NCBI GenBank assembly: GCA_040776905.1
Contig: JAXGZQ010000004.1
Location: 13,667 to 77,666, forward strand
DNA length: 64,000 bases
Direction of reading: 5' to 3'
Source of the DNA: Clostridia bacterium
Lineage (GTDB): Bacteria; Bacillota; Clostridia; Saccharofermentanales; UBA5734
Shown: piece after piece, positions 7,318 through 26,021 of the stretch
Layout of the letters: each line of letters begins with the position of its first letter
Numbering within the stretch: the stretch's first letter is position 1
The notes under the pieces: generated by a model
The model's database searches: none
The model's input: the letters and a program-made list of their open reading frames with translations, nothing else
What the model was told of the DNA's origin: nothing
Position numbers and translations under genes: made by a program

Positions 7318-7343
7318 AATACCGGCGGCCCCCCGCCGGTATT
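7318..7343 (-). terminator. GC-rich hairpin downstream of rhaB (possible terminator or processing site)
   Basis: AATACCGGCGG-CCCC-CCGCCGGTATT forms a perfect stem 15 nt after the rhaB stop. The U-tract on the minus strand is poor. Confidence 0.35.
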
Positions 7344-7357: not shown

Positions 7358-8851
7358 TTAGATTGTAACACAGATCCCGCCATACCGCTGCCGGTACGAA
7401 TCAAGCGCGCTCCGCCATGCCGGCTGCTCCTGCGGCTGATAGGTCTTCAGTTCACAGGAGGCGGCGGCGACCGCGCGCGCAGCCTTCAAGTCCTTCAGAT
7501 GTCCGCCAGCCATCAGCTGTACGGCCATATTCCCCAGGGCGGTCGCTTCAGCCGGGCCGGCGATTACTGCACAGGCCGTTGCGTTTGCGGTGAATTGAGA
7601 CAACAGGCCGTCCCTGGTTCCCCCGCCGACAATATGCAGCTGCCGGTATGATTTGCCGCTGATCTGTTCAATCTGTTCCAGGGTGATACGATATTTGAGC
7701 GCCAGGCTCTCATAAATACAGCGTGCGACCTCACCACGGCTGCGCGGAACCGGCTGTCCACTGTCGCGGCACAAAGTCCTGATCCGCTCAGGCATGTCAC
7801 CCGGTGCCGCCAGAGAAGCGTCATCAGGGTCGATCAGTGAACGAAACGGCGGACTGGCCAGTGCTTCTCGCTCAATATCAGCATAACTGACTTCCGCGCC
7901 ATCCCGTATCCACTGCCGTCTTGATTCCTGGATCAGCCAGAGGCCCATGATATTTTTCAGCAGCCGTGTTGTTCTGGCAAAACCGCCTTCATTCGTAAAG
8001 TTATACTGTCTGGTTTGATCATTGATCACAGGAGCCTCTGTCTCAATACCCATGAGCGACCAGGTTCCACTGCTGATGTAGATAAAATCCGAGGTTGTCG
8101 CCGGAATGGAGACAACCGCAGCGGCAGTGTCATGTGAAGCGCCGGTCATGACCGTGATGGCATCGATGCCCAATTCGGCGCAGATGGCTGGTGACAAAGT
8201 TCCGGCCGCGGCGCCGGGATGGCGGATCGGGGCAAAAAGCCGGGCCCGCAGCCCCAGACGATCGATCAGGTTCCAGTCCCAGTCACGCTGGTTCGCGTCA
8301 AGCAGCTGTGTGGTCGAGGCCATCGTATACTCCGACTGGCGAATTCCGGTCAGCAGATAGAGCAGCAGATCCGGCATCAGCAGCAGCTGGTCAGCCCGTT
8401 CAAGCAGATCCGGACGATCGCGGCGAAGCGCGGCCAGCTGGAAAATCGTGTTGATGTTCATCAGCTGGATGCCGGTGTGACGGTAAAGTTCATCATCACT
8501 GATGACAGCAAATACATCCGGCATGACGGTTTCTGTCCGGCGGTCCCGGTAATGAACCGGCTGGTCGAGCAGATAGCCGTGTTCGTCAATCAAGCCGAAA
8601 TCAACACCCCAGGTATCAATGGCCATACTGCTGATCGGCGCATGCGGTTTGGCCAGAAGGAGCCCCTGTTTGATTTCATGAACCAGCCGCGGCAGATCCC
8701 AGTACAAAGTCTCACCGAGCATGACGGGATCATTGCTGAACCGATGCAGTTCTTCCAGTCTGATGGTCTGTCCGTCAAAACGACCGAGCATCGCTCGTCC
8801 GCTTGACGCTCCGAGATCAAACGCCAGCAGGCGGATTTCCTGATCCATCAT
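7358..8851 (-). CDS. rhaB: Rhamnulokinase (FGGY family)
   Basis: 497 aa. The N-terminus LLAFDLGASSGRAMLGRFDG...LHRFSN matches the RhaB pattern. It is adjacent to rhaA. Confidence 0.85.
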   Translation of the reverse strand: MMDQEIRLLAFDLGASSGRAMLGRFDGQTIRLEELHRFSNDPVMLGETLYWDLPRLVHEIKQGLLLAKPHAPISSMAIDTWGVDFGLIDEHGYLLDQPVHYRDRRTETVMPDVFAVISDDELYRHTGIQLMNINTIFQLAALRRDRPDLLERADQLLLMPDLLLYLLTGIRQSEYTMASTTQLLDANQRDWDWNLIDRLGLRARLFAPIRHPGAAAGTLSPAICAELGIDAITVMTGASHDTAAAVVSIPATTSDFIYISSGTWSLMGIETEAPVINDQTRQYNFTNEGGFARTTRLLKNIMGLWLIQESRRQWIRDGAEVSYADIEREALASPPFRSLIDPDDASLAAPGDMPERIRTLCRDSGQPVPRSRGEVARCIYESLALKYRITLEQIEQISGKSYRQLHIVGGGTRDGLLSQFTANATACAVIAGPAEATALGNMAVQLMAGGHLKDLKAARAVAAASCELKTYQPQEQPAWRSALDSYRQRYGGICVTI

Positions 8852-8859
8852 GTCCCTCC

Positions 8860-9984
8860 CTACTGCTCTTTTGTCAGGGTCTTGCGATAGGCTTCGCTTT
8901 CCCAGCCGCGGATGAACGCCTGTCCCGCTTCATCCATGGTCTGAACCGTATAGCCGGCCTGACTGATCTGTTGTTGAATGAAAAGAACCGCTGTCAGGGT
9001 CTGTTCGATCGTCTCCGCTTCAATTTGGCCGCAGCGATAGCAGATTGATCCATCAGCGGTCAGGATCGTCGCGGCCGCTGACAGGGGAATATCGGCCGCG
9101 ATAGCGTTCTCAATTGCCGCGTCCATCACACCGAGCTGCCCGGCCAGATAGACCAGCTGATCAGGATACAGCGCCTGTTCGGTCAGTTGTGGCAATTTCC
9201 AGTTTCCTGACGCCAGACGATCCCGCAGCCACACAGTGTCTGAATAGAAACAGTTTTCATCACCATAACATCCGGAGCGGACACGGACATCGGGCCAGGC
9301 TTCAGCCCGGGTGCCGAACGCGGCCGCCAGCCGTTGATTGACCTCTTCATGCAGCCGCACGCACTGTCCGGCGTCATCACCCGTAATGATCAGGCCGTGA
9401 TTTTGCATCAGCAGAATCTGCGGCCGCCGCCCGGTCTGTGATTCGGCGTCAGCCATGGCCCGGGCAATCGCGAATGTCAGGCGGCTGCCGGGATCCAGAT
9501 ACGGAATCCAGACAAAACCCGCCGGACCTTCAGCCAGCGCGTCCGCGGCGATCTTCTGCCCCTGGACCGAGCAGGCCGCCAGGTTCGCGTAGACCGCGTG
9601 GGTATGCAGAACATAGCGATCCAGTATCGCGTGAAATCCGGCCTCAACCGATGGACGCAGCTGAGGCAGACCATCGACAGTCTGAACGTTCTGGCGGACA
9701 TACGACGAGCCACTGGCCTCTACATCGGCAAAATCATCGGGTCGGTGCTGCGCGAAAAATGCGCGGATGGCCTGATAGTCAAGAACGGCATAGGCGTAGT
9801 CTGGCCGCATTTGATCAAGTCGGAAGCCGGACGCCTTGATCGCCATCAGGCGATCATCCAGTTTAACCGATGTATTCCCGCCGCCGCCCTGTACATAGTC
9901 AGAACGCTGACCCGCCAGGCGGGACATTTCCAGCAGGCCTTCAAGATGGGTTCGATGGTCGTCGCTTAATGTGATCGCTGTCAT
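8860..9984 (-). CDS. Class II aldolase/adducin-domain protein; likely rhamnulose-1-phosphate aldolase (RhaE-like domain without a fused dehydrogenase)
   Basis: The YVQGGGGNTSVK motif is typical of the aldolase half of the YuxG/RhaEW type, and the context is rha. I place the start at ATG 9984 (MTAITL), which avoids overlap with the rhaA stop at 9989. Confidence 0.7.
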   Translation of the reverse strand: MTAITLSDDHRTHLEGLLEMSRLAGQRSDYVQGGGGNTSVKLDDRLMAIKASGFRLDQMRPDYAYAVLDYQAIRAFFAQHRPDDFADVEASGSSYVRQNVQTVDGLPQLRPSVEAGFHAILDRYVLHTHAVYANLAACSVQGQKIAADALAEGPAGFVWIPYLDPGSRLTFAIARAMADAESQTGRRPQILLMQNHGLIITGDDAGQCVRLHEEVNQRLAAAFGTRAEAWPDVRVRSGCYGDENCFYSDTVWLRDRLASGNWKLPQLTEQALYPDQLVYLAGQLGVMDAAIENAIAADIPLSAAATILTADGSICYRCGQIEAETIEQTLTAVLFIQQQISQAGYTVQTMDEAGQAFIRGWESEAYRKTLTKEQ

Positions 9985-9988
9985 GTTC

Positions 9989-11272
9989 TCAGCTCCGTTC
10001 CCGCAGAATCTTGCGCTCATACTCATGGATCGGCTCGAGATAATTGAGACCGGCCGGAACCTGTTCGCGAACGCAGAACTCATTCCAGATAGCCTGTGCC
10101 GGCAAATGTTTCGCTTCTTCTGTCAAAGCCAGACGGTCTGCCAAACGGCCGGCAGCCTCAGCTTCACGAATCCGTTCAGTCGGTTCAAGCATGGCCTGCA
10201 GAGCGGCCCGCCGTGTCGCGCGCAGCCCGATCACCCAGGCAGCAATCCGGTTAATGCTGCCATCAAAGAAATCTGTCGCCAGGCTGACACGGTCAAAAGC
10301 ATCTGAACGATGGATCTCCCGCATCAGGTCCTGCAGCGCGTCATCAGTGATCACCACGTGATCACTGTCCCATTTAACCGGCCGGCTCACATGTACGAGC
10401 AGTCGCGGGTAGAAGGTCAGCAGCGCAGATATCTTATCACTGACAGCTTCGGTCGGATGATAATGGCCCATATCCAGGGTCAGCACGACATTCCGGTGGC
10501 CCAGCGCATGGCTGTGTGCCAGATATCCCATGTAAAACTCATGGGAACCGGCGGTGAAGCTTTCCACACCGACACCGAACAATTTGCTTTCAATCGCGTC
10601 AACCAGATGTTCCCCGGGCAGCGCTTCACTCAGGATCGCGTCCAGTGAATCCTTCAGCCGGCGGCGCAGTACACCGCGGTCGGCAGGGATATCCTTGCTT
10701 CCGTCAGGAATCCATATATTGCAAATAGACGGACGGCCCAGCGCCCGGCCGAATCCATCCGCGATCCGCCGGCTGGCCTGGCAGTGGCGGATCCAGAACT
10801 GGCGCGTCGATTCATCAGGATGTGTCAGCGTCATGTTATCGTCTGCCAGACGATGGCCAAACAGCGTCGGGTTGAAATCGACAGCCAGCTGATGCTGTCT
10901 GGCCCAGTTGAGCCATGCCTCGAAATGACGCATCTCATAGCTATCCCGGTCAACCTGATCACTGCCGGTCTCAGCATAGCTGGCATGCAGATTGACCCTG
11001 TGGCGGCCGGGGAGCAGACTGAGTGCCATCGCCATATCGTCACGCAGCTCATCACCGTCGCGGGCAATCCCGGGGCTTGACCCGGTGGACATGATGCCGC
11101 CGGATGTCCCGCCGGCCATCTGTTCCAGGCCGGTGACATCGTCGCCCTGCCAGCAGTGCATGGAGATTTCCAGCTGTTCCAGCTGACGCAAAACCGCTTC
11201 GGTGTCGACTCCCAGCTCCGCATACTGTTCTCTGGCTGCCTGGTACTGTGTCTCAATCTGATGTTTATTCAT
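9989..11272 (-). CDS. rhaA: L-rhamnose isomerase
   Basis: MNKHQIETQYQAAREQYAELGVDTEAVLRQLEQLEISMHCWQGDDV closely parallels the Bacillus-type RhaA N-terminus. I place the start at ATG 11272. Confidence 0.93.
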   Translation of the reverse strand: MNKHQIETQYQAAREQYAELGVDTEAVLRQLEQLEISMHCWQGDDVTGLEQMAGGTSGGIMSTGSSPGIARDGDELRDDMAMALSLLPGRHRVNLHASYAETGSDQVDRDSYEMRHFEAWLNWARQHQLAVDFNPTLFGHRLADDNMTLTHPDESTRQFWIRHCQASRRIADGFGRALGRPSICNIWIPDGSKDIPADRGVLRRRLKDSLDAILSEALPGEHLVDAIESKLFGVGVESFTAGSHEFYMGYLAHSHALGHRNVVLTLDMGHYHPTEAVSDKISALLTFYPRLLVHVSRPVKWDSDHVVITDDALQDLMREIHRSDAFDRVSLATDFFDGSINRIAAWVIGLRATRRAALQAMLEPTERIREAEAAGRLADRLALTEEAKHLPAQAIWNEFCVREQVPAGLNYLEPIHEYERKILRERS

Positions 11273-11313
11273 GCCGCTTACCTCCTGAATGATGTATTGA
11301 TCGATGGTTGGAT

Positions 11314-12624
11314 TCAATGAATCATGTCGTGGCGGGCTTTTCCGGCGTAATGCCGGACCCTCTGTTCAAGTGCCGGCCAGCGCTTTCGGGCGGTTTCCGA
11401 AAACAGGCCCGCATCGTCTCCAGCCCGCTCGTGCGCGATAAGTGCCCAGGCGGCGTCATAGAGATGGGAAAACATCGGGTCGCGCATCGCCTGGCAGACA
11501 AACGCCTGGCGAGGCTGGTTGATATCCTCTCCGCTGATCTGGAACAAGCCGTATTCACGGCACAGTCGCTGAACACGCTCCAGCTGCGCCCGTTGATTGC
11601 GTGACGGCATATAGGTGACCGCCTGGAACCCTAGCTGAGGCAGGCGCTTGAATAGATCATCAAGAAAGTCATCTTCAAAGGCCTGGCTTTTCTTGTCACC
11701 GGTCACTGAATCGGTGACATCGCCCAGATACGCGTAGGCAGGAATCAGGCCGTGTTCAGATGCCCAGGCGGTGACATGTTCCGCCGGCGGACATTCATCG
11801 GAACCGGCATCAAGATAGAACCGCTCCACCAGATGGCCTTTCAGCAGTCCAAGCAAATCATAGCGCCGGTACGGCTGCGGGCTTTGCAGATGCCCGCGTT
11901 GTTTTTCTGTCAGCGGCAGCCGCAGATCATGCTCCAGCCGTTCGACCAGCTGTTTCCCATCCGGTGACTGATCCAGCAGCTGGCCGGCCAACGCGAACAG
12001 AATATGCCGTTCGGTGATCTCGCCACCCTCTTCCCAGCAGGATAGCGGGATGATATCCTGCTCAAAATCCAGTGACAGACCATACGGCTTCATCAGATGA
12101 TTCAGACGCCCGGTCATCGCCAGGCTGCGCTGGAAACGAGCCTGACGGATCGGCTCCAGCCACGCCTGTACAGCCGGGATCTGGTGGTGCGGAACACCGT
12201 GCAGCGCGATATAGGCGACCCCTCTCTGGTCCGGGTTGTTGATATGACGGCCGCTGAAAGGAAGACCCTGCAGCGAGACTCTGCATTCAAGACCAATGGT
12301 CACCGGCAGATGAAGCAGGCGTCCGGCTTCGATGAACTCCAGTGCTCCCGCGATTGAGTCATGATCCATCAGGCCGGCGGTCGCCAGCCCGGCCTGTCTG
12401 GCCTGCCAGGCGGCAGCGGATGGTGAATAGGGCGAGAAAGAATAGATGGTATGGATATGATTGTTCACATCGCGTCCGCCCCCGCCGCCGGCCTGGTCCG
12501 ACGGGTCGGTCCGACGGCACCAATCACGCAAAGCGGACAGCCGCTGCTGCGGCGTCGGCTGGTTGAGCATCTGTGCCAGCGATTCATGCGGCTGGCCCGG
12601 GGTCGTGGTCTGCATCATCATCAC
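11314..12624 (-). CDS. PHP-domain metal-dependent phosphoesterase
   Basis: 436 aa. The N-terminal VNNHIHTIYSFSPYSP...GLMDHDSIAG is a PHP His-motif pattern. Confidence 0.65.
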   Translation of the reverse strand: MMMMQTTTPGQPHESLAQMLNQPTPQQRLSALRDWCRRTDPSDQAGGGGGRDVNNHIHTIYSFSPYSPSAAAWQARQAGLATAGLMDHDSIAGALEFIEAGRLLHLPVTIGLECRVSLQGLPFSGRHINNPDQRGVAYIALHGVPHHQIPAVQAWLEPIRQARFQRSLAMTGRLNHLMKPYGLSLDFEQDIIPLSCWEEGGEITERHILFALAGQLLDQSPDGKQLVERLEHDLRLPLTEKQRGHLQSPQPYRRYDLLGLLKGHLVERFYLDAGSDECPPAEHVTAWASEHGLIPAYAYLGDVTDSVTGDKKSQAFEDDFLDDLFKRLPQLGFQAVTYMPSRNQRAQLERVQRLCREYGLFQISGEDINQPRQAFVCQAMRDPMFSHLYDAAWALIAHERAGDDAGLFSETARKRWPALEQRVRHYAGKARHDMIH

Positions 12625-12642
12625 TCCTGAAATCGCGCCGGA

Positions 12643-15117
12643 TCATACACCCTGGCGGCTGCGCCGGATCATTTCCGTATCGGTAAAACTGTTCTCCGGT
12701 GTATAGCCCAGCAGCGGACGGATCCGCTGATGGTAGGCATCAATCAGCCAGCGAGGCTGGGGAAAGAAATACTCTTCCAGTTCAAATGCCGGGGTAATCC
12801 AGTTGCGCGAACCGACCACAACGACCGGCGCATCAAGGTCATCAAAACAGAGATCGCTGATCGTCCGGGCCAGATCGTTCAGATAGGATCCGCGCTCGCA
12901 GGCATCCCCTGAAACGATGATGCGGCCGGTTTTCCTGACCGACTCGATGACTTTCTCATACTGGAACGGCACGAGCGACCGGGCATCAATAACCTCAACT
13001 GAGACGCCATGGTCACGCTCCAGAATCTCAGCGGCTTCAAGTGCCCGGTACAGGGTCGCTCCGATGGTCAGAACGGTCAGGTCACTGCCGGCCCGCTTGA
13101 CATCCGGTTCACCGATGGCAATTTCATATGAAGTTTCCGGAACCCCTCCGGCATGGAATTGTTCGCCGATATCATAGAGACGCTGGCTTTCGAAAAAGAT
13201 AACCGGATCGGTCCCGTTCAGCGCGCTGGTCATCAGTCCCTTGGCATCATAGGGCGTGACAGGGAAGACAACTTTCAAACCCGGGATATGCGTGCAGAGC
13301 GCTGTCCAGTCCTGGGAATGCTGCGCGCCGTATTTTGATCCGACGGAAACACGCAGAACCACCGGCATCCGCAGAATACCCGCCGACATGGCCTGCCACT
13401 TAGGCAGCTGGTTGAAAACCTCATCACCGGCACGGCCAAGGAAATCAGAATACATCAGTTCAACCAGCGCACGGCCGCCGCTCATGGCATAGCCAACGGC
13501 CGAGCCGACAATCGCGCCCTCCGAAATCGGTGAGTTGAACAGCCTGTGATAGGGAACGGCTTCGGTTAAGCCACGATAGACCGCGAACGCGCCGCCCCAG
13601 TCACGATTCTCCTCACCATAGGCAACCAGTGTCGGATCTTCATAAAACTTATCGAGAATCGCTTCGAACAGCGCGTCTCTCAGCTGGTAGACACGGTTTT
13701 TCGCGATGGCTTGTCCCTGCTCGTCAAAAGCGAAGCGCTGTCTGCGCGCGATCTGCTTGACCCGGGGATTCTCCTCCCGTGTCTGCAGCATATCGGCCGG
13801 CCGGTCATCCATCCGGGCAATGGATTGATTGGAGAACATCAGTGACGCGATCGCGTCCGGCTGACGACGCAGATTCATCCGCGGTGACAGGTCAGCATCA
13901 ATCGCCCATCCGGTCGTCCGTTCAATGGTTTCAATGACCTGCTGGTCGATGGCCGCGAAATCCTCAGGCTTCGCGACAGCAGCATCCAGCAGCTGCTGCC
14001 GGAATGAACTGATCGAATCCTCTGCTTCCCAGGCGGCCTTTTCTTCCTCGGTCCGGTAGGAATCAGCATCTGAAGGCGAATGACCGGCATACCGGTAGGT
14101 CAATGTATCAAGCAGAACCGGACCTCTCCGCTGCTCGATCACCTCGCGCTTGCGGCGAATCGCGTCGATGACAGCCAGTGGCTGATAGCCGTCGATCCGT
14201 TCGGCATGCATCTGATCCGGGTTGATTCCGGCACCCAGCCGTGCGGCCATTTCATAACCCATCGTTTCACCGCGGGTCTGACCGCCCATGGCATACTGGT
14301 TGTTCATGATATTGAAGATCAGAGGCAGGCCGCCTTTCATGTCATCCGGCCACAATTGGCGGAACTGGTCCATCGTGGCCATCATGAAGGCTTCCCAGAC
14401 CGGTCCGCAGCCGAGGGATCCGTCACCGATATTACAGATGACCAGGCCGGGGCGGCGGTTGATTTTCTTGAACAGGGCGGCACCGACTGATATATCTGCG
14501 GAACCACCGACGATCGCGTTATTGGGATAAACGCCGAACGGCAGGAAAAACGCATGCATCGACCCGCCCAGACCGCGGTTGAACCCGGTCGTCCGGGCGA
14601 AAATTTCCGCCAGTGCCCCATAGACAAGAAAATCGACTGCCAGTTCACGCAGCGATTTCCCACTGCCTGACTGTTGTTCGACCACCCGCCACACAGCGCC
14701 GTCCAGAAACTGCTCCATCACCTGCTGCAGTGCTTGTTCATTCATGTGGTGGATCGCCGATAGCCCTTTGGCCAGAATTTCGCCATGGCTGCGATGTGAT
14801 CCGAAAATGAAATCCTGTTCAGTCAGCAGATAGGCTTGGCCGACCGCGGCAGCTTCCTGGCCGATTGAGAGGTGGGCAGGACCCGGATTATTGTAGTTCA
14901 GTTCCCGATACTGATTGGTCGTCTTGATCTCATACAGCATGGTTTCAAATTCACGAATCAGACGCATGTCGCGATAGATGCGAAGAAAATCCGCCGGACT
15001 ATAGCTTTCCGTTTCTTCCGCGATCGTCCGCTGGTACTGATTGACTGGAATATCCGCAAACCTGATCAGATCCGGTTTGCGGACATCTGAGGGATTAATG
15101 AATAATTGACGGGTCAT
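12643..15117 (-). CDS. 2-oxoacid/acetoin-type dehydrogenase E1 component; alpha and beta fused in one 824-aa chain
   Basis: The N-terminal half has the TPP-binding region (NIGDGSLGCGPVWEAFMMA ... NNQYAMGG). The C-terminal half is transketolase-like E1-beta (FNSPISEGAIVGSAVGYAMSG). Confidence 0.85.
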   Translation of the reverse strand: MTRQLFINPSDVRKPDLIRFADIPVNQYQRTIAEETESYSPADFLRIYRDMRLIREFETMLYEIKTTNQYRELNYNNPGPAHLSIGQEAAAVGQAYLLTEQDFIFGSHRSHGEILAKGLSAIHHMNEQALQQVMEQFLDGAVWRVVEQQSGSGKSLRELAVDFLVYGALAEIFARTTGFNRGLGGSMHAFFLPFGVYPNNAIVGGSADISVGAALFKKINRRPGLVICNIGDGSLGCGPVWEAFMMATMDQFRQLWPDDMKGGLPLIFNIMNNQYAMGGQTRGETMGYEMAARLGAGINPDQMHAERIDGYQPLAVIDAIRRKREVIEQRRGPVLLDTLTYRYAGHSPSDADSYRTEEEKAAWEAEDSISSFRQQLLDAAVAKPEDFAAIDQQVIETIERTTGWAIDADLSPRMNLRRQPDAIASLMFSNQSIARMDDRPADMLQTREENPRVKQIARRQRFAFDEQGQAIAKNRVYQLRDALFEAILDKFYEDPTLVAYGEENRDWGGAFAVYRGLTEAVPYHRLFNSPISEGAIVGSAVGYAMSGGRALVELMYSDFLGRAGDEVFNQLPKWQAMSAGILRMPVVLRVSVGSKYGAQHSQDWTALCTHIPGLKVVFPVTPYDAKGLMTSALNGTDPVIFFESQRLYDIGEQFHAGGVPETSYEIAIGEPDVKRAGSDLTVLTIGATLYRALEAAEILERDHGVSVEVIDARSLVPFQYEKVIESVRKTGRIIVSGDACERGSYLNDLARTISDLCFDDLDAPVVVVGSRNWITPAFELEEYFFPQPRWLIDAYHQRIRPLLGYTPENSFTDTEMIRRSRQGV

Positions 15118-16544
15118 ACCTTACCTCCAGTGATTGAATCGTGTTCGTCTGTGGGTTGATCGCCAGCCGGTGTCCCTGTTTCCGGCAGTCGGAAGACGGC
15201 TTCACGAATAATTTCCGCGACGGTCGGATGCGGAAAAATAAACTTCTTGATTTCTGACAGCGGCATCTGATGTTCAATCATCATACCGGCTGTCAGGATG
15301 ATTTCCGACGCGCAGCTGCCGAGAAGATGACAGCCCAGAAGGATCTGTCGCCGGGGATGGACCAGCAAATGGATCTGACCGCCAGCCTGCGCGTTTTCAG
15401 CCATGAACCGTCCGCTGTACTGCATGGGCAGCCGTACCTCAAGATAAGGAATTCCCTTCTCCCGGCAGGCATCTGCCGTCAGGCCGACTGAAGCCAGCTC
15501 CGGCTGGGTGTAGATCACGGATGGCATCGCGTCATATGACATCCTGTCATTTTCCCCAAGGATCGAAGCGATCGCGACCTCCGCTTCGCGATAGGCGGCA
15601 TGGGCCAGCATCCACAGGCCGTTGACATCACCGACCGCATAAACGTCCGGCCAGTTGGTCCGACCTTTCTCATCGGTCACGATGCGTCCCTTTTCGGTGT
15701 AAACGCCAATGTTTTCCAGGCCGATGCCCCTGATTCTGGGACGCCGCCCGACACTGAGCAGAATTTTTTCAGCGTTGAGCCATTTTGTTTCGCCATCCTG
15801 CTGAAACTCGACACCATCGCCCGAGACCCGGCTGACCCGGCTCTGCAGGAAAACCTGCATTCCCTTTTTCTCAAGCTGGCGCTGCAGCAGTCCGACCTGT
15901 TCACGGTCGGCCTGCCCAGCCAGTTGATCCAGCATTTCCACAATGGCCACCTGGCTGCCGATACTCTGATAAAGGCTGGCCATTTCCAGCCCGATCACAC
16001 CACCGCCGATCACAACAAGCTGCTCCGGGATCTGTTCCAGATCGAGCATCTCACGGCTCGTCAGCACAAAGCCGGACTCAAGGCCTTCCTGAATTCCCGT
16101 GATCGGAGGAATGACCGGTTCCGAACCGGTCGCGATGATCAGCCAACGGCTGCTGTACTGCTCATTGCCGGCCTGAACCGTAATGCGGCCCGGCTCACGG
16201 CTGATGATCCGTCCCTCCCCGCTGACCACAACCACACCGTGCTGTTTCAACTGCTGTTTGATCCCCGCCACCAGTCCGCGGACAACTTTGTTTTTCCGCT
16301 TGACCGCGACCGCGGGATCGTAACGGGCCGATTCAACCGTTACACCATAGGCCTTGCCATGCAGGGCATACTCATAGATCTTAGCGCCATTGAGCAGCGT
16401 TTTCGATGGAATACAGCCCTCGTTCAGGCAGACGCCGCCGAGCTTGTCTTTTTCGATCAGCAGAACCGCCAGTCCGGCCTGGCCAGCCCGTTCCGCGGCC
16501 AGGTAACCACCAGGCCCGCCGCCAAGAACAATCAGATCATACAT
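15114..16544 (-). CDS. lpdA: Dihydrolipoyl dehydrogenase (E3)
   Basis: GGGPGGYLAAERAG FAD motif and redox-active CLNEGCIPSK. It overlaps the E1 start by 4 nt (ATGA). Confidence 0.93.
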   Translation of the reverse strand: MYDLIVLGGGPGGYLAAERAGQAGLAVLLIEKDKLGGVCLNEGCIPSKTLLNGAKIYEYALHGKAYGVTVESARYDPAVAVKRKNKVVRGLVAGIKQQLKQHGVVVVSGEGRIISREPGRITVQAGNEQYSSRWLIIATGSEPVIPPITGIQEGLESGFVLTSREMLDLEQIPEQLVVIGGGVIGLEMASLYQSIGSQVAIVEMLDQLAGQADREQVGLLQRQLEKKGMQVFLQSRVSRVSGDGVEFQQDGETKWLNAEKILLSVGRRPRIRGIGLENIGVYTEKGRIVTDEKGRTNWPDVYAVGDVNGLWMLAHAAYREAEVAIASILGENDRMSYDAMPSVIYTQPELASVGLTADACREKGIPYLEVRLPMQYSGRFMAENAQAGGQIHLLVHPRRQILLGCHLLGSCASEIILTAGMMIEHQMPLSEIKKFIFPHPTVAEIIREAVFRLPETGTPAGDQPTDEHDSITGGKV

Positions 16545-17883
16545 GTTCAGGTTCCTCCGCCGTTTCTGTCTCCGGCACGGCTTGCCACAACATCAAGGTC
16601 AGATGTTCAAGTGCCCAGACAAGATCCTTGAGAAAACGGGCGGCCGGCGCGCCATCCAGCGCGCGATGGTCAAAGGTCAGCGACAGACCAATCGCCGGAT
16701 AGGTGCTGATCGTACCGTTTTCAGCGCGGACGCGCTCAACAGCGCAGCCGACCCCGAGAATACAGGTCTGCGGCGGATTGATCACCGGAGTGAAATTTTC
16801 GACGCCGAGTGTTCCGAGATTGGTCACGGTAAATGTCCCGCCTTGAAGCAGGTCCGGTTTGATGGTTCCCGTCTGGCAGTCGGCCGCCAGTTTTCGCGTC
16901 TGTTCCGTGATTTTTTCGAGTGTCAGTTGATCCGCAGCGCGCAGTGTCGGAACCATCAGACCCCGTGGTGTATCAATCGCGACACCCAGATGGACTCTGC
17001 GGAACAAGGTCAGTCCGGCATCATCGTACCAGGCATTACAGGCCGAATGAAGCGGCAGCACTCGGGAAACCGCCCAGAGAATCAAATCATTTACGGTCGG
17101 TATGCGGCGGGACTGCGGCCAGTCCAGGCTCAACGGGTGCTGGTCGGCCGCCGCGGCTTTCAACTGGCCGCGCAGTCTGAACAGCTCAGTGGCGTCAAAA
17201 CTGCTGTTCAATGTCAATTGAGCCATCGTGGACAATGATTCATGCATGGAACGGGCGATCAACTGGCGAACGCGGCTGTGTGGAACCTGCCGGATTTCGT
17301 CATCAACCGGCATCACCGGCGCAGCCGGCTCCGGTTCATGTCCTGCGGCCGATTGCCCCTCCGTACTGCCGGAGAGGCTGATCTTCAGAATATCGTCCTC
17401 AATCACCCGGCCCCCCGGTCCGCTGCCGCTGGCCTGCTGCCAGGAAACATTTTTCTGCTTTGCCAGCCGGCGCGCACGGGGGCTGCTGCCGCTTTGTGCC
17501 GGCGGTACCGGGATGGCCGGTTCACGCTTTACGGATTCAGGTTGGACGGTAGCGGCCACCGGCTCCGCAGCGGCGGCCGCATCTTCAGACGCATCAGCCG
17601 CCCGGTCGCCTGCCGGACGCGGATCATAAGGATCAACAGATTCTCCGGGCTCACCGATCACCGCGACATGGTTGAGGCAGGGTACATCATCCCCTTCCTG
17701 ATAGAAAACAGCCAGCAGGGTTCCGGCAACACGTGCCTTCTCATCAAAGGCGGCTTTATCCGTTTCATAGGTGAATAAAAGATCATCCACCTTGACCCGG
17801 TCACCGACTTTACGATGCCATTCTCCAATGATGCAGCTTTCAACCGACTGGCCCTGACGGGGCATGATCACAGGTGTTGCCAT
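16537..17883 (-). CDS. Dihydrolipoamide acyltransferase (E2)
   Basis: Lipoyl domain with ETDKA, a Pro/Ala linker, and a catalytic domain with DHRALDG. Confidence 0.9.
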   Translation of the reverse strand: MATPVIMPRQGQSVESCIIGEWHRKVGDRVKVDDLLFTYETDKAAFDEKARVAGTLLAVFYQEGDDVPCLNHVAVIGEPGESVDPYDPRPAGDRAADASEDAAAAAEPVAATVQPESVKREPAIPVPPAQSGSSPRARRLAKQKNVSWQQASGSGPGGRVIEDDILKISLSGSTEGQSAAGHEPEPAAPVMPVDDEIRQVPHSRVRQLIARSMHESLSTMAQLTLNSSFDATELFRLRGQLKAAAADQHPLSLDWPQSRRIPTVNDLILWAVSRVLPLHSACNAWYDDAGLTLFRRVHLGVAIDTPRGLMVPTLRAADQLTLEKITEQTRKLAADCQTGTIKPDLLQGGTFTVTNLGTLGVENFTPVINPPQTCILGVGCAVERVRAENGTISTYPAIGLSLTFDHRALDGAPAARFLKDLVWALEHLTLMLWQAVPETETAEEPEHV

Positions 17884-17909
17884 AATGATGATTCCTCTCT
17901 CTAAATCGC

Positions 17910-19016
17910 CTAATTCAACATGACCTGGCCGCCCGTCACCGGGATCGCCTGGCCTGTTTCATACTCTTGTTCAACACAGTAGAAAATGGCCCGGGCGACA
18001 TCGATCGGACGACAGCCGCGGCGCATGGGAACTTTCGCCGTATAGGCTCGATACACGTCATCAATGCTCGCCGCGCCTTCTATTTTTCCTGCTTTCAGAT
18101 ACTGGACAAACAGACCCTTATCCGGATCGCTCCACAGCGGTCCCTCGTAATAATTTCCGGGGCAGATCGCGTTGACCTTGATCCGCCAGCTGACCAGTTC
18201 TTTGGCGAAACTCTGAACCAGGCCGATGCCGCCGAATTTACTTCCGGCATAGGCAAAATTCCGATCTGAGCCTTCGAGACCTGATTTCGAGTTGATCTGA
18301 ATGATATCGGCGCTGTAGCCGGGGCATTCCTCAGCCTGCCGCTTCATCGGGCGGCAGCCGGCCCGGGCAACCAGAAAAAACCCGGTGTAGTTGACACGGG
18401 TCACGAACTCAAAATCCTCCGGCCTCAGTTCATCCAATCCGCCGGCACGAAGCACACCGGCATTGCTGATGATCAGATCCAATCCGCCATACAGGAGTGT
18501 CATGGTTTCGATCAGGGTGTTGACGGAGGATTCACTGGCGACATCAACCGGAAGTGCCAAAGCCTCCCCGCCGCTTTCATTGATCGATTCGGCCACAAAC
18601 CGGGCCCGTTCCAGATTCAGGTCCGCGATCACGACAGCCGCTCCGGCTGTGGCCAGCTCACGGGCAATGCCCTCACCGAAGCCTTGTGCCGCTCCGGTCA
18701 CCAGAGCGATTCGACCGCTCAGGCGGTCCGGGCCGCTCTGGCGCTGGCGCAGATGAAAACAGCCGGCCGGTGCGATCCGGATACATTCAGGCTGGTGGCC
18801 TCCGGCATGGTCCAGCTGCTGCCGCAAAGCGCTGAGAAGCTGTTCAGGGCTGTCATAATCCGACGCGTCGATCGTCCAGACCGTCTTTTCATTCACGTCA
18901 GACGTTAAAGTTTCTTCAAACCTGACCTGCTTGAGCTTTGGCCAGAACAGGCCGCGCAGCCGCGGCGCCAGTTCCAGCGCAATCTGCTGTGGTGTCAGAT
19001 GTTCTATCCAGTGCAT
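17910..19016 (-). CDS. Short-chain dehydrogenase, sorbitol-6-phosphate dehydrogenase (SrlD)-like, with a roughly 110-aa N-terminal extension
   Basis: TGAAQGFG cofactor motif. NSKSGLEGSDRNFAYAGSKFGGIGLVQSFAKEL closely resembles the SrlD active-site block and contains YxxxK. Confidence 0.75.
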   Translation of the reverse strand: MHWIEHLTPQQIALELAPRLRGLFWPKLKQVRFEETLTSDVNEKTVWTIDASDYDSPEQLLSALRQQLDHAGGHQPECIRIAPAGCFHLRQRQSGPDRLSGRIALVTGAAQGFGEGIARELATAGAAVVIADLNLERARFVAESINESGGEALALPVDVASESSVNTLIETMTLLYGGLDLIISNAGVLRAGGLDELRPEDFEFVTRVNYTGFFLVARAGCRPMKRQAEECPGYSADIIQINSKSGLEGSDRNFAYAGSKFGGIGLVQSFAKELVSWRIKVNAICPGNYYEGPLWSDPDKGLFVQYLKAGKIEGAASIDDVYRAYTAKVPMRRGCRPIDVARAIFYCVEQEYETGQAIPVTGGQVMLN

Positions 19017-19047
19017 TGAAATTCCTCCATCACCGCGTCAGCCTGAG

Positions 19048-20313
19048 TCAGATCGGCTGGGCCTGCTCAAGCAGGCAGCGTTCAGCTTCAGCGCACCACA
19101 GCTGCCGGTTCGCCGCGACAATGTCCGCCAATTCGCGAAACAGCGGGTCCTTCCCGCCCAGACGGGCAAAATCACTGATCGCGGTCAGGGGAAGCCGAAT
19201 TTGTGTATAAATCAATTTTTTACCGCCTGGAATCTTCGGCAGATTCAACGTGGTGTCGATGACGCTGTTCAGACCGCCGATATGCGTGATCATCGCCGAA
19301 GGATCGATCTGTCCGGCCGACATCATCTCCAGCGCTTCGATCAGGTCATCCGTATTGCCGCCGCTGTTCCCGGCAACATGAGTCGCCCGGTAATGGACAT
19401 CGTAAAAATTGAGACGGGCTGAGAATTCCGGATCGGTCGGTCCGGCGAAGAAATTGAGGCACCCGTCATGGGCCAGAATCTGAACCGCCTGTTCCACCAC
19501 GGCACTGACCGGTGCGTAGACATAAACATCATCGTATCCGTGACCGTCGCCGATTGACAGAAGATGCCCGGGGACATCGGATACATCACGCGTGTTGACA
19601 TACACCAGACGGACACCGCAGCGCTCAGCTTCTGCCTCACTGTAGATCTCACGGGCCCGCTGCAGCCGGTCGTCATCAATATCCGTTACGACCAGCAGGC
19701 CAGGCCTCCTGTCACAGTGCAGGGCATAGTCGATCGCGCCAAGTCCCATCGGTCCGACCCCGGCCAGCAAGGCCATCTGACCGCCTTTGACAATCCCCAT
19801 CCGGTGCTCATAACTGCCGGCCCGGGTGTGATAGTTGACATGAAACCCGCCGATGATGCAGGATACCGGCTCAGCCAGTGAGCCGTGGTAAAACGCCTCT
19901 CCCCGGTAAGGCAGGAGGCAGCCATGTTCCATCACCGTCTCAGGAATGATGATGCGGGTCGCCGCCCCGCCGATATGGCGAAAACTGTAGCCGGGTGCCG
20001 CGTATGGGTCGGCCGGATCATTGATCGCCGGCTGGATCGCGAACCGGTCTCCGGCCTTGAACTGATGCTGCCAGCGGGAACCGACCTCGAGAATACGGCC
20101 GCAGAACTCGTGTCCGATGATCACCGGGTCGGTCGCGATCGTTTCCGGAACACGCTTATGGTCCGCTCCCTGTATCGCTGCTTTATAGGAAGACATGCAG
20201 ATACTGTCAGAGACAATTTCTGCCAGGATTTCTCCGGAACCGATTGGTGGAAGCTCAAACTGCTCCAGTCTCAAGTCATTTTTCCCATATAAACGAACGG
20301 CTTTTGTCTCCAT
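19048..20313 (-). CDS. Zn-dependent dehydrogenase, long (about 420 aa) sorbose-1-phosphate-reductase-like subtype
   Basis: GHEFCGRILEVG zinc motif, an N-terminus typical of polyol/sugar-phosphate MDRs, and GVGPMGLGAI in the Rossmann region. Confidence 0.7.
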   Translation of the reverse strand: METKAVRLYGKNDLRLEQFELPPIGSGEILAEIVSDSICMSSYKAAIQGADHKRVPETIATDPVIIGHEFCGRILEVGSRWQHQFKAGDRFAIQPAINDPADPYAAPGYSFRHIGGAATRIIIPETVMEHGCLLPYRGEAFYHGSLAEPVSCIIGGFHVNYHTRAGSYEHRMGIVKGGQMALLAGVGPMGLGAIDYALHCDRRPGLLVVTDIDDDRLQRAREIYSEAEAERCGVRLVYVNTRDVSDVPGHLLSIGDGHGYDDVYVYAPVSAVVEQAVQILAHDGCLNFFAGPTDPEFSARLNFYDVHYRATHVAGNSGGNTDDLIEALEMMSAGQIDPSAMITHIGGLNSVIDTTLNLPKIPGGKKLIYTQIRLPLTAISDFARLGGKDPLFRELADIVAANRQLWCAEAERCLLEQAQPI

Positions 20314-20382
20314 GGTCGTTCTCCTTCCGGCCGGTTATTCGGGCAGGCCGGGCATCAGCGCCTGTCGGCCCTACAACCGGCA

Positions 20383-20446
20383 TTCTGATTATATCATAGC
20401 GATAATTTCCCAAAGCGAAAAGAATCGCGCCGGGATTGGTATAATC
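20383..20446. promoter_or_regulatory. Back-to-back divergent promoters (13-kb minus-strand operon and PAS-GGDEF gene)
   Basis: On the minus strand, TGATATAAT is read from 20383-20391. On the plus strand, TGGTATAAT lies at about 20438-20446. Both are extended -10 elements. Confidence 0.45.
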
Positions 20447-20484
20447 AATACGAAATGTGACACGATACGGCATGGAGGACAAAC

Positions 20485-21253
20485 ATGAACATGGCTTATT
20501 CAGAATGGACCCGGCAGCAGCTGGTCGATCGAATCCGTGAGCTGGACGCCTTGAATCAAGCGTTGCTGCGGGAGCAGGAACAGGAGGTCCGGCTGGAATT
20601 CGCCTGGAGCGGAAAATCTTGGTCATTGGTACTGGGATGTGGTCAGCAATACCGTGACATTCAATCCGCTCAAAGTCACTACGCTCGGATATCAGATGGA
20701 TGAACTGCCTGGCCAGGTCAGCTATCAGTTTTTCACCGACAAGCTGCATCCCGATGATTTTCAAAAAACAATGGACATCATGTTGGATCATCTTCATGGA
20801 AAAACTCCGGTCTATGAAGCTGAATATCGAATCAGAGCAAAAGACGGCCGCTACCGCTGGTACTACGACCGTGGCAAGGTCACGCGATATGATGCCGATG
20901 GCAAGCCGGTTTTCCTCTCCGGTATTGTCTTCGACATTACTGAGAAGAAAGCCACACAGGTTGAACTGGAGGAAAAAAACAAGCTGTTGGCCAAGATGTC
21001 AGAGCTTGATGGACTGACAAGGATCAGCAACCACCGCGCTCTGGTCGAGCGCCTGAAGAGTGAAACAGAGCGTTCCGACCAGAAGCAGACCCCGCTGGCG
21101 ATCGCGGCCTTTCCGTTTGGTGAAACGCTCTCAATCTCGGTCAGCGGCGGGGTACAGGACTACCGGGGCCAGAGTACGACGGAACTGATTCATGAAGCCG
21201 ATATGAAAATGTATCAAGCCAAACGGAATGGCAAGAACCAGATTGTGATCTGA
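20485..21253 (+). pseudogene. PAS-GGDEF diguanylate cyclase pseudogene (frameshift plus internal in-frame deletion)
   Basis: Two overlapping ORFs cover this region. Removing one A from the A4 run at 20613-20616 fuses them and gives AWSG-NLGHWYWDVVSNTVTFNP, a PAS-type sequence. The GGDEF domain jumps from ...QTPLAIA straight to AFPFGETLSISVSGG, so the DxxFK...GGDEF core is missing. Confidence 0.75.
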
Positions 21254-24502: not shown

Positions 24503-26011
24503 ATGGCAGATAACTACTATCTCGGCATCGACCTCGGAACATCGAGTGTCAGGGCAGTTCTATTCAATCACGACGGGCAGCCCGTTCATGCTGAGCAGCG
24601 TGAGACACCTCTGATGACGGAAACGGCGGCAACAGCCGAGCTTGATCCTGATCTGATATTCGACCAGCTGATCGAAGTGGTCAGCCAGAGCACTCGCTTC
24701 GCCCGGGAGCACAACCACCATATTCGCGCCATCGGCTGGAGCACTCAGCTGCACAGTCTGATGGCGGTGGATAAGAGCGGCCGCCCCCTGACCCGGCTGA
24801 TGACCTGGGCGGACAGCCGCGCCAATGACCAGGCCGACGAGATCAGCCGCCAGTTTGATTCTGACCGCCTGTACTCAATTACCGGCTGCCGGGCACAGCA
24901 TCCGCTGTATCCACTCAGCAAAATTCTCTGGCTGAAGGAATGCCAGCCGGACGTTTTCGCCAGAGCTCACCGTTTCATCTCCATCAAGACGTATCTGACT
25001 GAACGCCTGTGTGGTGAATATCTGATTGATATCACCGACGCGTCAGCCACAGCGTGCTTCAATATCCGGGAATTTCGCTGGGACCCCTATATTTTGAAGG
25101 AAATACTCGGGCTTGAACCACACCACTTCGCCCGTCCGGTAGCCTGCGAAGCGGTCTTGCCGCCGTTGAAACCTCAGATGCGTCTGCGGCTCGGCCTTGA
25201 ACCGGAAACACTGATTGTCGCCGGAACCGGAGACGGCATCGCGGCTAATCTTGGCTGTGGCATTTTTAATGACAGCGCCATGACCAGTACAATCGGCACG
25301 AGCGGCGCGATCCGCACAACAGTCCGCCAGCCGCTGCTGGATCCGCGGCAGCGAACCTGGTGCTACTGTCTGTCCGATCATCTCTGGGTAGCCGGCGGAG
25401 CGATCAACAATGGCGGAATCGTTCTGCGCTGGCTGCGCGATCAATTCCTGGAAACATTCAAGGCCGATGCCGCGGCTTCAGATCTCAACTCCGTCTACGC
25501 CCAGTTCGACCGCTACGCCGCTGATCTTCCGGCCGGCAGTGACGGCTTGATCTTCCTTCCTCTGTTGACCGGCGAACGTTCACCCAACTGGAACGCCCGT
25601 ACACGCGGTGTTCTGTATGGCCTGGATATCAGGCACAGCCGCGCGCATATTGTCAGAGCAGCCATGGAAGGGATCCTATACCAGATGTATTCGGTCTATC
25701 AGGTACTGGCTTCGATCAGCGGATCATCCATTCAGATCCGCGCCAATGGCGGGTATGCCCGCTCTGAAATATGGCTGCAGATGCAGGCTGACCTGTTCGG
25801 TCAGCCGATCGCGGTCAGTACGGTCAGCGAGGCTTCAGCGTTAGGTGCCGCCTACCTTGGCATGCTGGCCGCCGGTTCCGTATCCCATTTGGGAGAGACG
25901 CTGCCGGCCATGGCCGTCCATAAAATTTTCCAGCCTGATCCAGCCCAGTCCGCGGTGTATCAATCCGGATTCCAGCTGTATCAGGACATCTATCAGCGGC
26001 TGTACCGCTAA
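24503..26011 (+). CDS. gntK: Gluconokinase (FGGY family)
   Basis: MADNYYLGIDLGTSSVRAVLF N-terminus and gnd in the same operon. The track ORF start at 24389 is upstream, so I use ATG 24503. Confidence 0.8.
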   Translation: MADNYYLGIDLGTSSVRAVLFNHDGQPVHAEQRETPLMTETAATAELDPDLIFDQLIEVVSQSTRFAREHNHHIRAIGWSTQLHSLMAVDKSGRPLTRLMTWADSRANDQADEISRQFDSDRLYSITGCRAQHPLYPLSKILWLKECQPDVFARAHRFISIKTYLTERLCGEYLIDITDASATACFNIREFRWDPYILKEILGLEPHHFARPVACEAVLPPLKPQMRLRLGLEPETLIVAGTGDGIAANLGCGIFNDSAMTSTIGTSGAIRTTVRQPLLDPRQRTWCYCLSDHLWVAGGAINNGGIVLRWLRDQFLETFKADAAASDLNSVYAQFDRYAADLPAGSDGLIFLPLLTGERSPNWNARTRGVLYGLDIRHSRAHIVRAAMEGILYQMYSVYQVLASISGSSIQIRANGGYARSEIWLQMQADLFGQPIAVSTVSEASALGAAYLGMLAAGSVSHLGETLPAMAVHKIFQPDPAQSAVYQSGFQLYQDIYQRLYR

Positions 26012-26021
26012 GGAGGATCCC

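Follow-up and report, generated by a model that had tools for sequence, protein, structure and literature searches.

A rhamnose operon that joins a SorE/SrlD-like dehydrogenase pair to a lipoate-dependent complex: a conserved unit associated with 6-deoxyhexose catabolism in Clostridia and Bacteroidota

Results

Organization of the operon

The stretch of DNA analysed here (the window; 64,000 nt, C4:13667-77666 of a 2.9-Mb Clostridia genome in four contigs) carries nine same-strand genes between 7358 and 20313 on the minus strand. In 5' to 3' order, they encode a SorE-family zinc-dependent dehydrogenase (Zn-ADH), a SorD/SrlD-like short-chain dehydrogenase (SDR), the E2, E3, and fused E1 alpha-beta components of a lipoate-dependent complex, a PHP-fold protein, L-rhamnose isomerase (RhaA), a RhaE-type class II aldolase-fold protein, and rhamnulokinase (RhaB). 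A first-pass annotation had listed nine co-directional genes with tiny gaps or overlaps, and Pfam and NCBIfam profile searches recovered all nine open reading frames (ORFs) with the same families. The set is best explained as a 6-deoxyhexose (L-rhamnose) catabolic operon of the Csac_0865-0876 type. It is a further instance of a cluster already noticed in Caldicellulosiruptor, and the observation itself, which lies well above chance, is not new.

The genes are closely spaced, with gaps of 31, 26, 18-21, 41, 4, and 8 nt and overlaps of 8 and 4 nt once the starts of RhaA and the aldolase are revised, and they are translationally coupled within the rha operon. A GGAG-type ribosome-binding site precedes each of the nine. 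The two revised starts were chosen by this signal, which for RhaA reads AGGAGG.

A promoter-like element had been placed only at the 20.38-kb end of the operon. A perfect extended -10 match, TGATATAAT, does lie there. The restriction to that end is unsupported: a consensus promoter scan of the operon region returned 9 promoter-like sites against a chance expectation of 8.2 and, being at chance level, cannot establish a single promoter. The same scan does not list TGATATAAT because its -35 is poor. One promoter for the whole operon is plausible, and the hairpin beyond rhaB is likely to mark the operon's end (Table 1).

Table 1. Genes and other features of the operon region, in transcriptional order, with the profile or sequence evidence for each.
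Feature	Position	Strand	Evidence
Frame upstream of the operon	20485..21253	-	No family match; ORF 20276-20797 without Pfam match; site of the divergent DeoR gene in relatives
Extended -10 promoter-like element TGATATAAT	20388..20396	-	Perfect match, 75 nt upstream of the first ATG
SorE/YggP-family Zn-dependent dehydrogenase, 421 aa	19048..20313	-	Pfam ADH_N and ADH_zinc_N
SorD/SrlD-like short-chain dehydrogenase, 368 aa	17910..19016	-	Best NCBIfam model sorbitol-6-phosphate dehydrogenase
E2 dihydrolipoyl acyltransferase, 448 aa	16537..17883	-	Pfam lipoyl, E3-binding, and catalytic domains
E3 dihydrolipoyl dehydrogenase, 476 aa	15114..16544	-	TIGR01350, 474 bits (cut-off 409)
Fused E1 alpha-beta thiamine-diphosphate component, 824 aa	12643..15117	-	Pfam E1_dh, Transket_pyr, and Transketolase_C in one chain
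PHP-fold metal-dependent hydrolase-like protein, ~435 aa	11314..12621	-	Pfam PHP, 23.8 bits (cut-off 26.4)
L-rhamnose isomerase RhaA, 427 aa from ATG 11272	9989..11272	-	NF002203, 625 bits (cut-off 572)
RhaE-type class II aldolase-fold protein, 374 aa from ATG 9984	8860..9984	-	Pfam Aldolase_II
Rhamnulokinase RhaB, 497 aa	7358..8851	-	TIGR02627, 511 bits (cut-off 528); FGGY_N and FGGY_C
GC-rich hairpin 3' of the rhaB stop	7321..7340	-	Read from sequence; T-tract weak

The dehydrogenase pair

Over residues 3-421, the Zn-ADH is 50% identical (411-422 bits) to proteins annotated as sorE in Klebsiella and Citrobacter, and it is 52.5% identical to E. coli yggP. This full-length similarity assigns it to the SorE/YggP family. 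Its match to (R,R)-butanediol dehydrogenase is weak, at 41 bits.

The SDR scores 222 bits against the sorbitol-6-phosphate dehydrogenase model NF009050, which is below the 307-bit cut-off and still makes this its top model. It matches the SrlD structure 5o3z in the PDB at E 1e-41, and its core is 37-39% identical to annotated srlD products. It also matches acetoin reductases (PDB 1geg, 122 bits), and it scores 148 bits against the RhaEW model, whose cut-off is 568. A poorly conserved extension of about 100 aa precedes the core. Relatives of this extension were sought, and the search returned nothing beyond a weak 27% match in one relative; comparison with proteins in which an aldolase is fused to an SDR rejected the idea that it is the remnant of an aldolase domain. 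Overall, sequence similarity supports placing the two enzymes in the SorE and SorD/SrlD sugar-phosphate families, in agreement with the first-pass remark that they resemble enzymes acting on hexitol or ketose phosphates.

The E1-E2-E3 complex

The best NCBIfam models for E2 are those of pyruvate dehydrogenase (PDH) E2, all under cut-off (242 bits vs. 445). E1 likewise falls short of the PDH cut-offs in both halves, with 200 bits vs. 394 for E1 alpha and 237 vs. 321 for E1 beta. Of the components of a PDH complex, then, E1 alpha, E1 beta, and E2 all lie below their curated cut-offs, and E3 alone passes.

Alignment with human PDH E1 alpha leaves a 46-residue stretch (122-167) unaligned after the HRSHGEILAKG loop and places a 12-residue insertion within the GDG...NN thiamine-diphosphate motif; the GHS loop is kept. 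Across 74 orthologues, conservation within the alpha half is lowest in the 46-residue segment (mean column identity 0.62), whereas the 12-residue insertion is moderately conserved (0.79). We looked for a substrate signature in both insertions and in the GHS loop, and none of these features points to a substrate.

This E1 is the only clear E1_dh protein in the genome, where one further match is marginal (21.8 bits). The same genome encodes a 1187-aa NifJ-type pyruvate:ferredoxin oxidoreductase (PFOR). Because the sole E1-type enzyme occurs in a genome that already has PFOR, the complex is unlikely to be a housekeeping pyruvate dehydrogenase. That assignment was largely rejected on this ground and on the sub-cut-off scores of E1 and E2. 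Across phyla, orthologues of E1 are 63-76% identical, with a distinct gap down to ordinary E1 beta proteins at 33-37%. The high cross-phylum identity and the gap together suggest a single conserved, special substrate. In one Clostridia genome (G196:C2:939586-942046), E1 is split into genes for an alpha chain of 427 aa and a beta chain of 421 aa.

Rhamnose isomerase, kinase, and aldolase

RhaA exceeds the curated equivalog cut-off of NF002203 and matches Pfam PF06134 at 587 bits. For RhaB, TIGR02627 is the best model by far, at a score somewhat under its cut-off, and fuculokinase comes second at 159 bits. Family membership assigns isomerisation of L-rhamnose to RhaA and points to phosphorylation of L-rhamnulose by RhaB. 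In canonical L-rhamnose catabolism, RhaA, RhaB, and an aldolase yield dihydroxyacetone phosphate (DHAP) and L-lactaldehyde, and no thiamine pyrophosphate/lipoate complex is needed.

The top NCBIfam matches of the aldolase-fold protein are the N-terminal halves of "bifunctional aldolase/SDR" models. Its residues 50-404 are homologous to the N-terminal 380 aa of 655-aa aldolase-SDR fusions from Bacteroidota loci, and it scores 42 bits against the RhaEW model (cut-off 568). The only other class II aldolase of the genome lies in an unrelated context, beside acyl-CoA-synthetase-like and radA-like genes. The operon aldolase is therefore the sole candidate for rhamnulose-1-phosphate cleavage.

A 430-aa protein with two class II aldolase stretches occurs in rhaT-rhaA-kinase operons of Bacteroidota (L083:6510-7805, L024:14861-16153, L026:853-2145). 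In one Bacillota metagenome-assembled genome (MAG), this tandem protein is encoded directly 3' of the RhaE-type aldolase, so that some genomes have two different aldolase-fold proteins for the pathway.

A second rhamnose locus was sought in the window's genome; no RhaT was found, and a single RhaM-like ORF lies amid unrelated genes. The genome also encodes FucI, a GH78 rhamnosidase, a lipoate ligase, aldehyde dehydrogenases, and Fe-ADHs that include one of AdhE size.

The PHP-fold protein

The AlphaFold model of this protein (pLDDT 90.7) shows a PHP barrel with an inserted helical domain. Foldseek matched it at probability 1.0 to 3e0f, 2yb1, and 9etk, with TM-scores by target of 0.69-0.73 and 14-18% identity; these best matches are PHP proteins of the TrpH/Cv1693/RNase AM type. 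Over 26 homologues, the invariant residues are H56 and H58 (an HxH motif), D87, E113, H207, D302, N369, and H398. The model suggests a metal-dependent phosphoesterase. The fold search returned generic TrpH-type phosphoesterases only and gave no hint of a substrate.

Conservation of the gene set

Thousands of proteins are related to E1, and the best 120 are 71-100% identical to it. We gathered 80 genome loci around E1 orthologues. ORFs in these loci were called by a longest-ORF rule, under which an antisense ORF displaced E3 or E1 in L002, L015, and L019, and the tblastn table is the safer record. The search for the same linkage elsewhere was successful: the identical nine-gene order occurs in five Clostridia MAG loci (L001, L003, L005, L007, L012), and several truncated contigs match it as far as they extend. 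This recurrence rejects the possibility that the linkage is unique to the window's genome. Most of the Clostridia loci with this order also have a divergent DeoR regulator, and several have a lipoate-protein ligase.

In Bacteroidota, Kiritimatiellia, and Lentisphaerae, a core unit of a regulator, Zn-ADH, SDR, E2, E3, and E1 is found again, often accompanied by the PHP-like protein and the aldolase. The genes for the Zn-ADH, the SDR, and E2-E3-E1 occur as a set in Clostridia, Bacteroidota, and Lentisphaerae. The best conserved parts are E1 (63-76% identity), the Zn-ADH (57-74% identical to copies adjoining E1 in other loci), and the SDR (56-72%); conservation is much lower for E2, E3, the PHP-like protein, and the aldolase. 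Relatives have regulators of sugar-phosphate type, either DeoR or GntR/UTRA, and transaldolase/FSA-family genes recurrently adjoin the unit. A minimal DeoR-ZnADH-SDR-E2-E3-E1 unit stands alone amid housekeeping genes in one Clostridia locus (L092). We infer that the five to six genes besides the rhamnose enzymes form a separate conserved unit.

In Bacteroidota (Prolixibacteraceae, Marinilabiliaceae, and others), the unit comprises, in order, a GntR/UTRA regulator, E2, sometimes E3, E1, a 410-aa protein, the SDR, and the Zn-ADH. No Pfam family matches the 410-aa protein, which is a distant PHP-like homologue that has the HxH motif and about a dozen invariant residues in common with the window's protein. 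The SDR of Bacteroidota occurs on its own or as the C-terminal part of a 655-aa protein that starts with an aldolase-fold domain, and such fusions also occur in some Clostridia. Some Bacteroidota have the unit contiguous with rhamnose genes. In one such locus (L084), rhaB-rhaA-rhaT are followed by three unannotated ORFs, GntR, E2, E3, E1, the PHP-like gene, the aldolase-SDR fusion, and the Zn-ADH; the arrangement of another (L085) is similar. In the latter, genes for a mannitol-dehydrogenase-family protein, two HAD phosphatases, and an aldo-keto reductase lie between E1 and the PHP-like gene (L085:5116-8878).

Orthologues of E1 that are 71-72% identical to that of the window were also found on MAG contigs labelled Accumulibacter and Propionivibrio (L019:4036-14181, L015:944-8593). 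There the setting is LysR, a TAL/FSA-family aldolase, an SDR, E2, E3, E1, a second SDR, and an HpcH/HpaI aldolase, with a TRAP transporter upstream in L015 and a further thiamine-diphosphate enzyme downstream in L019.

Association with deoxyhexose isomerases

Co-occurrence was counted in 199 genomes of the window's class (Clostridia) and in 151 genomes of one Bacteroidota order; the counts ignore shared ancestry, and p-values drawn from them are overstated. An E1 orthologue was present in 44 of the 199 Clostridia. RhaA occurred in 27 of these 44 vs. 53 of the 155 E1-negative genomes, and FucI in 30 of 44 vs. 50 of 155. Either isomerase was present in 38 of the 44 and in 61 of the 155, an odds ratio of 9.8 (uncorrected for shared ancestry). 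In the Bacteroidota order, 24 of 151 genomes had an E1 orthologue (63-67% identity, with the same gap to ordinary E1 beta at 33-37%), and RhaA was found in 19 of these compared with 18 of the other 127 (odds ratio 23, likewise uncorrected). The association thus runs in the same direction in two phyla. The unit is tied to 6-deoxyhexose catabolism in general and not to rhamnose alone.

Discussion

Relationship to known systems

The corresponding gene set of Caldicellulosiruptor was first noticed in 2008, according to the account in a later paper (van de Werken 2008, cited in PMC4187192). In C. bescii and C. saccharolyticus, the cluster spans Athe_0695-0706 and Csac_0865-0876 (PMC8579813 supplement). 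It comprises FucA (Athe_0695/Csac_0865), RhaD1 (Athe_0696), a hypothetical protein (Athe_0697), SrlD (Athe_0698), SorE (Athe_0699), LipB (Athe_0700), LipA (Athe_0701), E2, E3, and E1 (Athe_0702-0704), a DeoR regulator (Athe_0705), and RhaA (Athe_0706) (PMC8579813). By annotation, this content (two class II aldolases, the hypothetical protein, SrlD-like and SorE-like enzymes, E2, E3, E1, DeoR, and RhaA) is the gene set of the window's operon type. It differs in that rhaB lies elsewhere and lipA and lipB lie inside the cluster, whereas here nine genes form one operon and DeoR is missing.

The Caldicellulosiruptor cluster was reported to be upregulated on rhamnose (PMC4187192), and its complex has been called simply a keto-acid dehydrogenase (PMC3561251). 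Rodionov et al. (2021) termed it a "predicted dehydrogenase in rhamnose utilization" and guessed that it consumes lactaldehyde in the final step (PMC8579813). For the Caldicellulosiruptor proteins, AcoC, AcoL, and acetoin dehydrogenase are given as the nearest characterised homologues, at 33-42% identity (PMC8579813 supplement). In a search of the full-text literature, we found no paper that gives the complex a function, and the Caldicellulosiruptor papers were the sole mentions.

RhaEW, represented by B. subtilis YuxG and a Chloroflexus protein, is a bifunctional rhamnulose-1-phosphate aldolase/L-lactaldehyde dehydrogenase that requires NAD+ and yields DHAP and lactate (PMC3870299). Like it, the operon combines a RhaE-type class II aldolase fold with an SrlD-like SDR in a rhamnose locus. 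Here, however, the aldolase and SDR are encoded separately, five genes apart, and not in one fused chain of about 680 aa, and the SDR is nearer SrlD than RhaW. By architecture and by score alike, the window's proteins fall outside RhaEW (TIGR02632, NF006189). The fused 655-aa relatives from Bacteroidota do align to TIGR02632 end to end, but at 232-257 bits they are far below the cut-off of 568 and are therefore RhaEW paralogues and not members.

The two remaining systems offer a precedent for the chemistry. In the Klebsiella sor operon, SorE and SorD convert a ketose 1-phosphate to a ketose 6-phosphate, taking L-sorbose-1-phosphate through glucitol-6-phosphate to fructose-6-phosphate; SorE-family enzymes reduce the C2 keto group. 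The L-sorbose enzymes of Klebsiella and E. coli, SorE and SorD/SrlD, represent both families of the window's adjacent pair. Unlike the L-sorbose operon, the window's operon has no phosphotransferase system, its SDR has an extra N-terminal region of about 100 aa (and is aldolase-fused in relatives), and the pair is joined to a lipoate complex and deoxyhexose genes. Because of this last difference, the substrate of the pair is probably a 6-deoxy analogue.

The AcoABCL acetoin dehydrogenase system of Clostridium magnum, Pelobacter, and Cupriavidus cleaves compounds of the form CH3-CO-CHOH-R to acetyl-CoA and an aldehyde. It too has a thiamine-diphosphate E1, a lipoyl E2, and an E3, and it too occurs in anaerobes. 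Its acoA and acoB genes are separate, its order is E1-E2-E3, and it usually has AcoR, whereas here a fused E1 with family-specific insertions comes last in the order E2-E3-E1, AcoR is missing (relatives have DeoR or GntR), and the context is sugar catabolism.

A proposed route to acetyl-CoA

By analogy with these two systems, we propose that the SorE/SorD-type pair would act on a 6-deoxy-ketohexose 1-phosphate and shift its carbonyl to the deoxy end and that the acetoin-type complex would remove that end as acetyl-CoA. We give this reading a probability of roughly one in three. In the first step, the SorE-family enzyme would reduce the C2 keto group of L-rhamnulose-1-phosphate, L-fuculose-1-phosphate, or 6-deoxy-L-sorbose-1-phosphate re-made from DHAP and L-lactaldehyde. 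The SDR would then re-oxidise the hexitol phosphate at the carbon adjoining the methyl group. The product would be a 1-deoxy-2-ketohexose 6-phosphate, which contains the CH3-CO-CHOH-R motif cleaved by acetoin-type E1 enzymes. E1 would pass the two-carbon unit to lipoyl-E2 to give acetyl-CoA, the electrons would reach NAD+ through E3, and a tetrose 4-phosphate would remain. If 6-deoxy-L-sorbose-1-phosphate, the D-threo aldolase product of DHAP and L-lactaldehyde, is the substrate, both dehydrogenases could keep their native stereochemistry, and the products would be 1-deoxy-D-fructose-6-phosphate and then D-erythrose-4-phosphate.

Such a scheme would explain why both dehydrogenase families always accompany the complex, why the unit can occur by itself, and why its regulators are of the sugar-phosphate type. 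The unit may track both rhamnose and fucose genes because L-rhamnulose-1-phosphate and L-fuculose-1-phosphate differ only at C4, the future aldehyde carbon. The recurrent transaldolase/FSA-family neighbours would fit a tetrose phosphate or 1-deoxy-ketose intermediate, and the two betaproteobacterial-labelled loci described above could represent the same chemistry in a non-phosphorylated version. By this route, the deoxy end would be recovered as acetyl-CoA, with extra ATP, and not excreted as 1,2-propanediol, and the route would matter most at low hydrogen.

The proposal is a refinement of the first-pass idea and is close to it. The intermediate suggested there was a diketone, 6-deoxy-5-ketofructose-1-phosphate. 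A 1-deoxy-2-ketohexose 6-phosphate is likelier because SorE-type enzymes are C2 reductases. It is possible, though in our view doubtful, that the unit constitutes a widespread route by which anaerobic Clostridia and Bacteroidota degrade rhamnose and fucose independently of B12 and without passing through lactaldehyde, with the lipoate complex splitting 1-deoxy-2-ketohexose 6-phosphate into acetyl-CoA and tetrose 4-phosphate.

Several observations weigh against the proposed route. The most direct is physiological: from rhamnose, C. saccharolyticus forms 1,2-propanediol, acetate, H2, and CO2 in a 1:1:1:1 ratio (PMC4187192). In batch culture of this organism, the methyl end is reduced to propanediol and does not become acetyl-CoA; an oxidative branch might operate only at low hydrogen, but to invoke one is for now special pleading. 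The bypass of lactaldehyde put forward in the first-pass annotation therefore does not hold, at least in C. saccharolyticus under the conditions tested. The broader idea of a non-canonical deoxyhexose pathway retains the support of comparative genomics and of enzyme-family logic, with the C. saccharolyticus products standing as physiological counter-evidence.

Other points against the route are structural and genomic. The aldolase-SDR fusion has the architecture of RhaEW, in which the SDR half oxidises free L-lactaldehyde (PMC3870299), and by analogy favours action at the three-carbon (C3) level; so does the position of the unit beside other lactaldehyde-releasing aldolases, such as the HpcH/HpaI aldolase of the betaproteobacterial-labelled loci. 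Cleavage of the intermediates derived from L-rhamnulose-1-phosphate or L-fuculose-1-phosphate would leave D-threose-4-phosphate or L-erythrose-4-phosphate, which are not central metabolites, and the unit contains no tetrose-phosphate isomerase. The PHP-fold protein has no role in the scheme, and the scheme leaves the place of this protein and of the aldolase in the unit unexplained. Six of the 44 E1-positive Clostridia have neither RhaA nor FucI, although in three of these six the Zn-ADH and SDR are present elsewhere in the genome. One of the six, a genome of the same family as the window's (G257), has DeoR, LplA, and E2-E3-E1 with no Zn-ADH or SDR orthologue. The co-occurrence counts are, moreover, uncorrected for shared ancestry. 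The same G257 genome, which lacks RhaA and FucI as well, carries two E1 copies of 74% and 54% identity (C2:475332-477803).

Alternative explanations

The alternative that survives best is salvage at the C3 level, which we regard as possible without thinking it likely. The aldolase would release DHAP and L-lactaldehyde, the two dehydrogenases would act on the free three-carbon unit, and the complex would convert the result to acetyl-CoA and a one-carbon fragment, or to an acyl-CoA. The Zn-ADH could be a lactaldehyde/propanediol oxidoreductase, and the SDR could either turn the CH3-CHOH end into a methyl ketone (methylglyoxal or acetol) or, like RhaW, make lactate from lactaldehyde. This comes near the suggestion of Rodionov et al. 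of a "final step" on lactaldehyde (PMC8579813), and it accords with aldolase-SDR fusions built like RhaEW, whose products are DHAP and lactate (PMC3870299). The unit adjoins three types of lactaldehyde-releasing aldolase: RhaE-type, the 430-aa tandem class II protein of Bacteroidota rha operons, and HpcH/HpaI. Caldicellulosiruptor, furthermore, produces propanediol without a known lactaldehyde reductase and dehydrogenase, so some enzyme of the cluster must handle lactaldehyde (PMC8579813, PMC4187192). However, 50% identity to SorE implies binding of a hexose phosphate and not of a C3 aldehyde, the PHP-fold protein and the sugar-phosphate-type regulators go unexplained, and the variant that proceeds via lactate needs one of the dehydrogenases to be a lactate dehydrogenase. 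Neither dehydrogenase family is, to our knowledge, known for that activity. We also know of no E1 that uses lactaldehyde, acetol, or methylglyoxal, and cleavage of acetol would release formaldehyde.

The other two readings explain less. It is improbable that the complex is a pyruvate dehydrogenase dedicated to the pathway, making NADH rather than reduced ferredoxin from pyruvate that arises from DHAP or lactate while the cells grow on deoxyhexoses. In NCBIfam and the PDB, E1 and E2 do match pyruvate dehydrogenase components best, the reduction of lactaldehyde consumes NADH, and the 1:1:1:1 ratio of C. saccharolyticus fits PFOR or PDH alike (PMC4187192). Set against this, all E1 and E2 scores are far under the curated PDH cut-offs and the host has PFOR. 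The strict pairing with SorE/SorD-type dehydrogenases would also go unexplained. Provided that L015 and L019 are correctly labelled as betaproteobacterial, those hosts are expected to own ordinary pyruvate oxidation, and a second PDH would be redundant.

Loci of the aco/bdh kind share the architecture of two alcohol dehydrogenases with E1E2E3. An ordinary 2,3-butanediol/acetoin unit of that architecture, with the Zn-ADH and SDR as butanediol dehydrogenases and an acetoin dehydrogenase complex placed by chance beside rha genes, would agree with the SDR's acetoin reductase matches, the Zn-ADH's weak butanediol dehydrogenase match, and the Aco homologues listed for Caldicellulosiruptor, but it is very improbable given that the Zn-ADH is far closer to SorE, that the regulators are DeoR or GntR and not AcoR, that the genes are translationally coupled in a rha operon and co-occur with RhaA or FucI in two phyla, and that the Caldicellulosiruptor cluster is reported to be rhamnose-induced (PMC4187192). 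The PHP-fold protein is left unexplained by every reading.

Significance of the unit

A conserved five-to-seven-gene unit that includes a whole lipoate complex is present in about one-fifth of the sampled Clostridia and about one-sixth of the sampled Bacteroidota order. The present analysis shows a long-standing module, noticed in 2008, to be widespread. Pectin, algal polysaccharides, and mucus contain rhamnose and fucose as major sugars, and in the textbook account half of the carbon of these two sugars is excreted anaerobically as 1,2-propanediol. If cleavage of the deoxy end is correct, deoxy-sugar fermentation would have a different balance of carbon and ATP, the apparent want of lactaldehyde enzymes in some degraders would be explained, and the complex would be the first of the 2-oxoacid-dehydrogenase class to act on a sugar phosphate. 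Should the complex prove to be just a dedicated dehydrogenase for pyruvate or lactaldehyde, the result would amount to a useful annotation and nothing further.

Flanking regions of the window

In relatives, the syntenic order is an AMP-binding gene, DeoR, and the operon, and in three of them (L001, L007, L088) DeoR (and LplA) is at the position of the frame just upstream of the Zn-ADH gene (Table 1). DeoR is missing from that place here. An earlier reading took this frame for a decayed PAS-GGDEF gene; the ORF that we found in this region gave no Pfam match. We searched the rest of the genome for a close orthologue of the missing DeoR and found none; the best DeoR protein, 31-33% identical, is encoded at another locus. 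The operon may have lost its repressor.

Elsewhere in the window, a protein with a Lar_N domain (the N-terminal domain of lactate racemase) is encoded at 25845-27293, between an FGGY kinase and 6-phosphogluconate dehydrogenase. The G+C content is 0.52-0.59 over most of the first 42 kb, with two 2-kb windows near 36-40 kb that dip to 0.48-0.51. From 42000 to 59000 it is 0.42-0.49, and this segment may be an island of foreign DNA.

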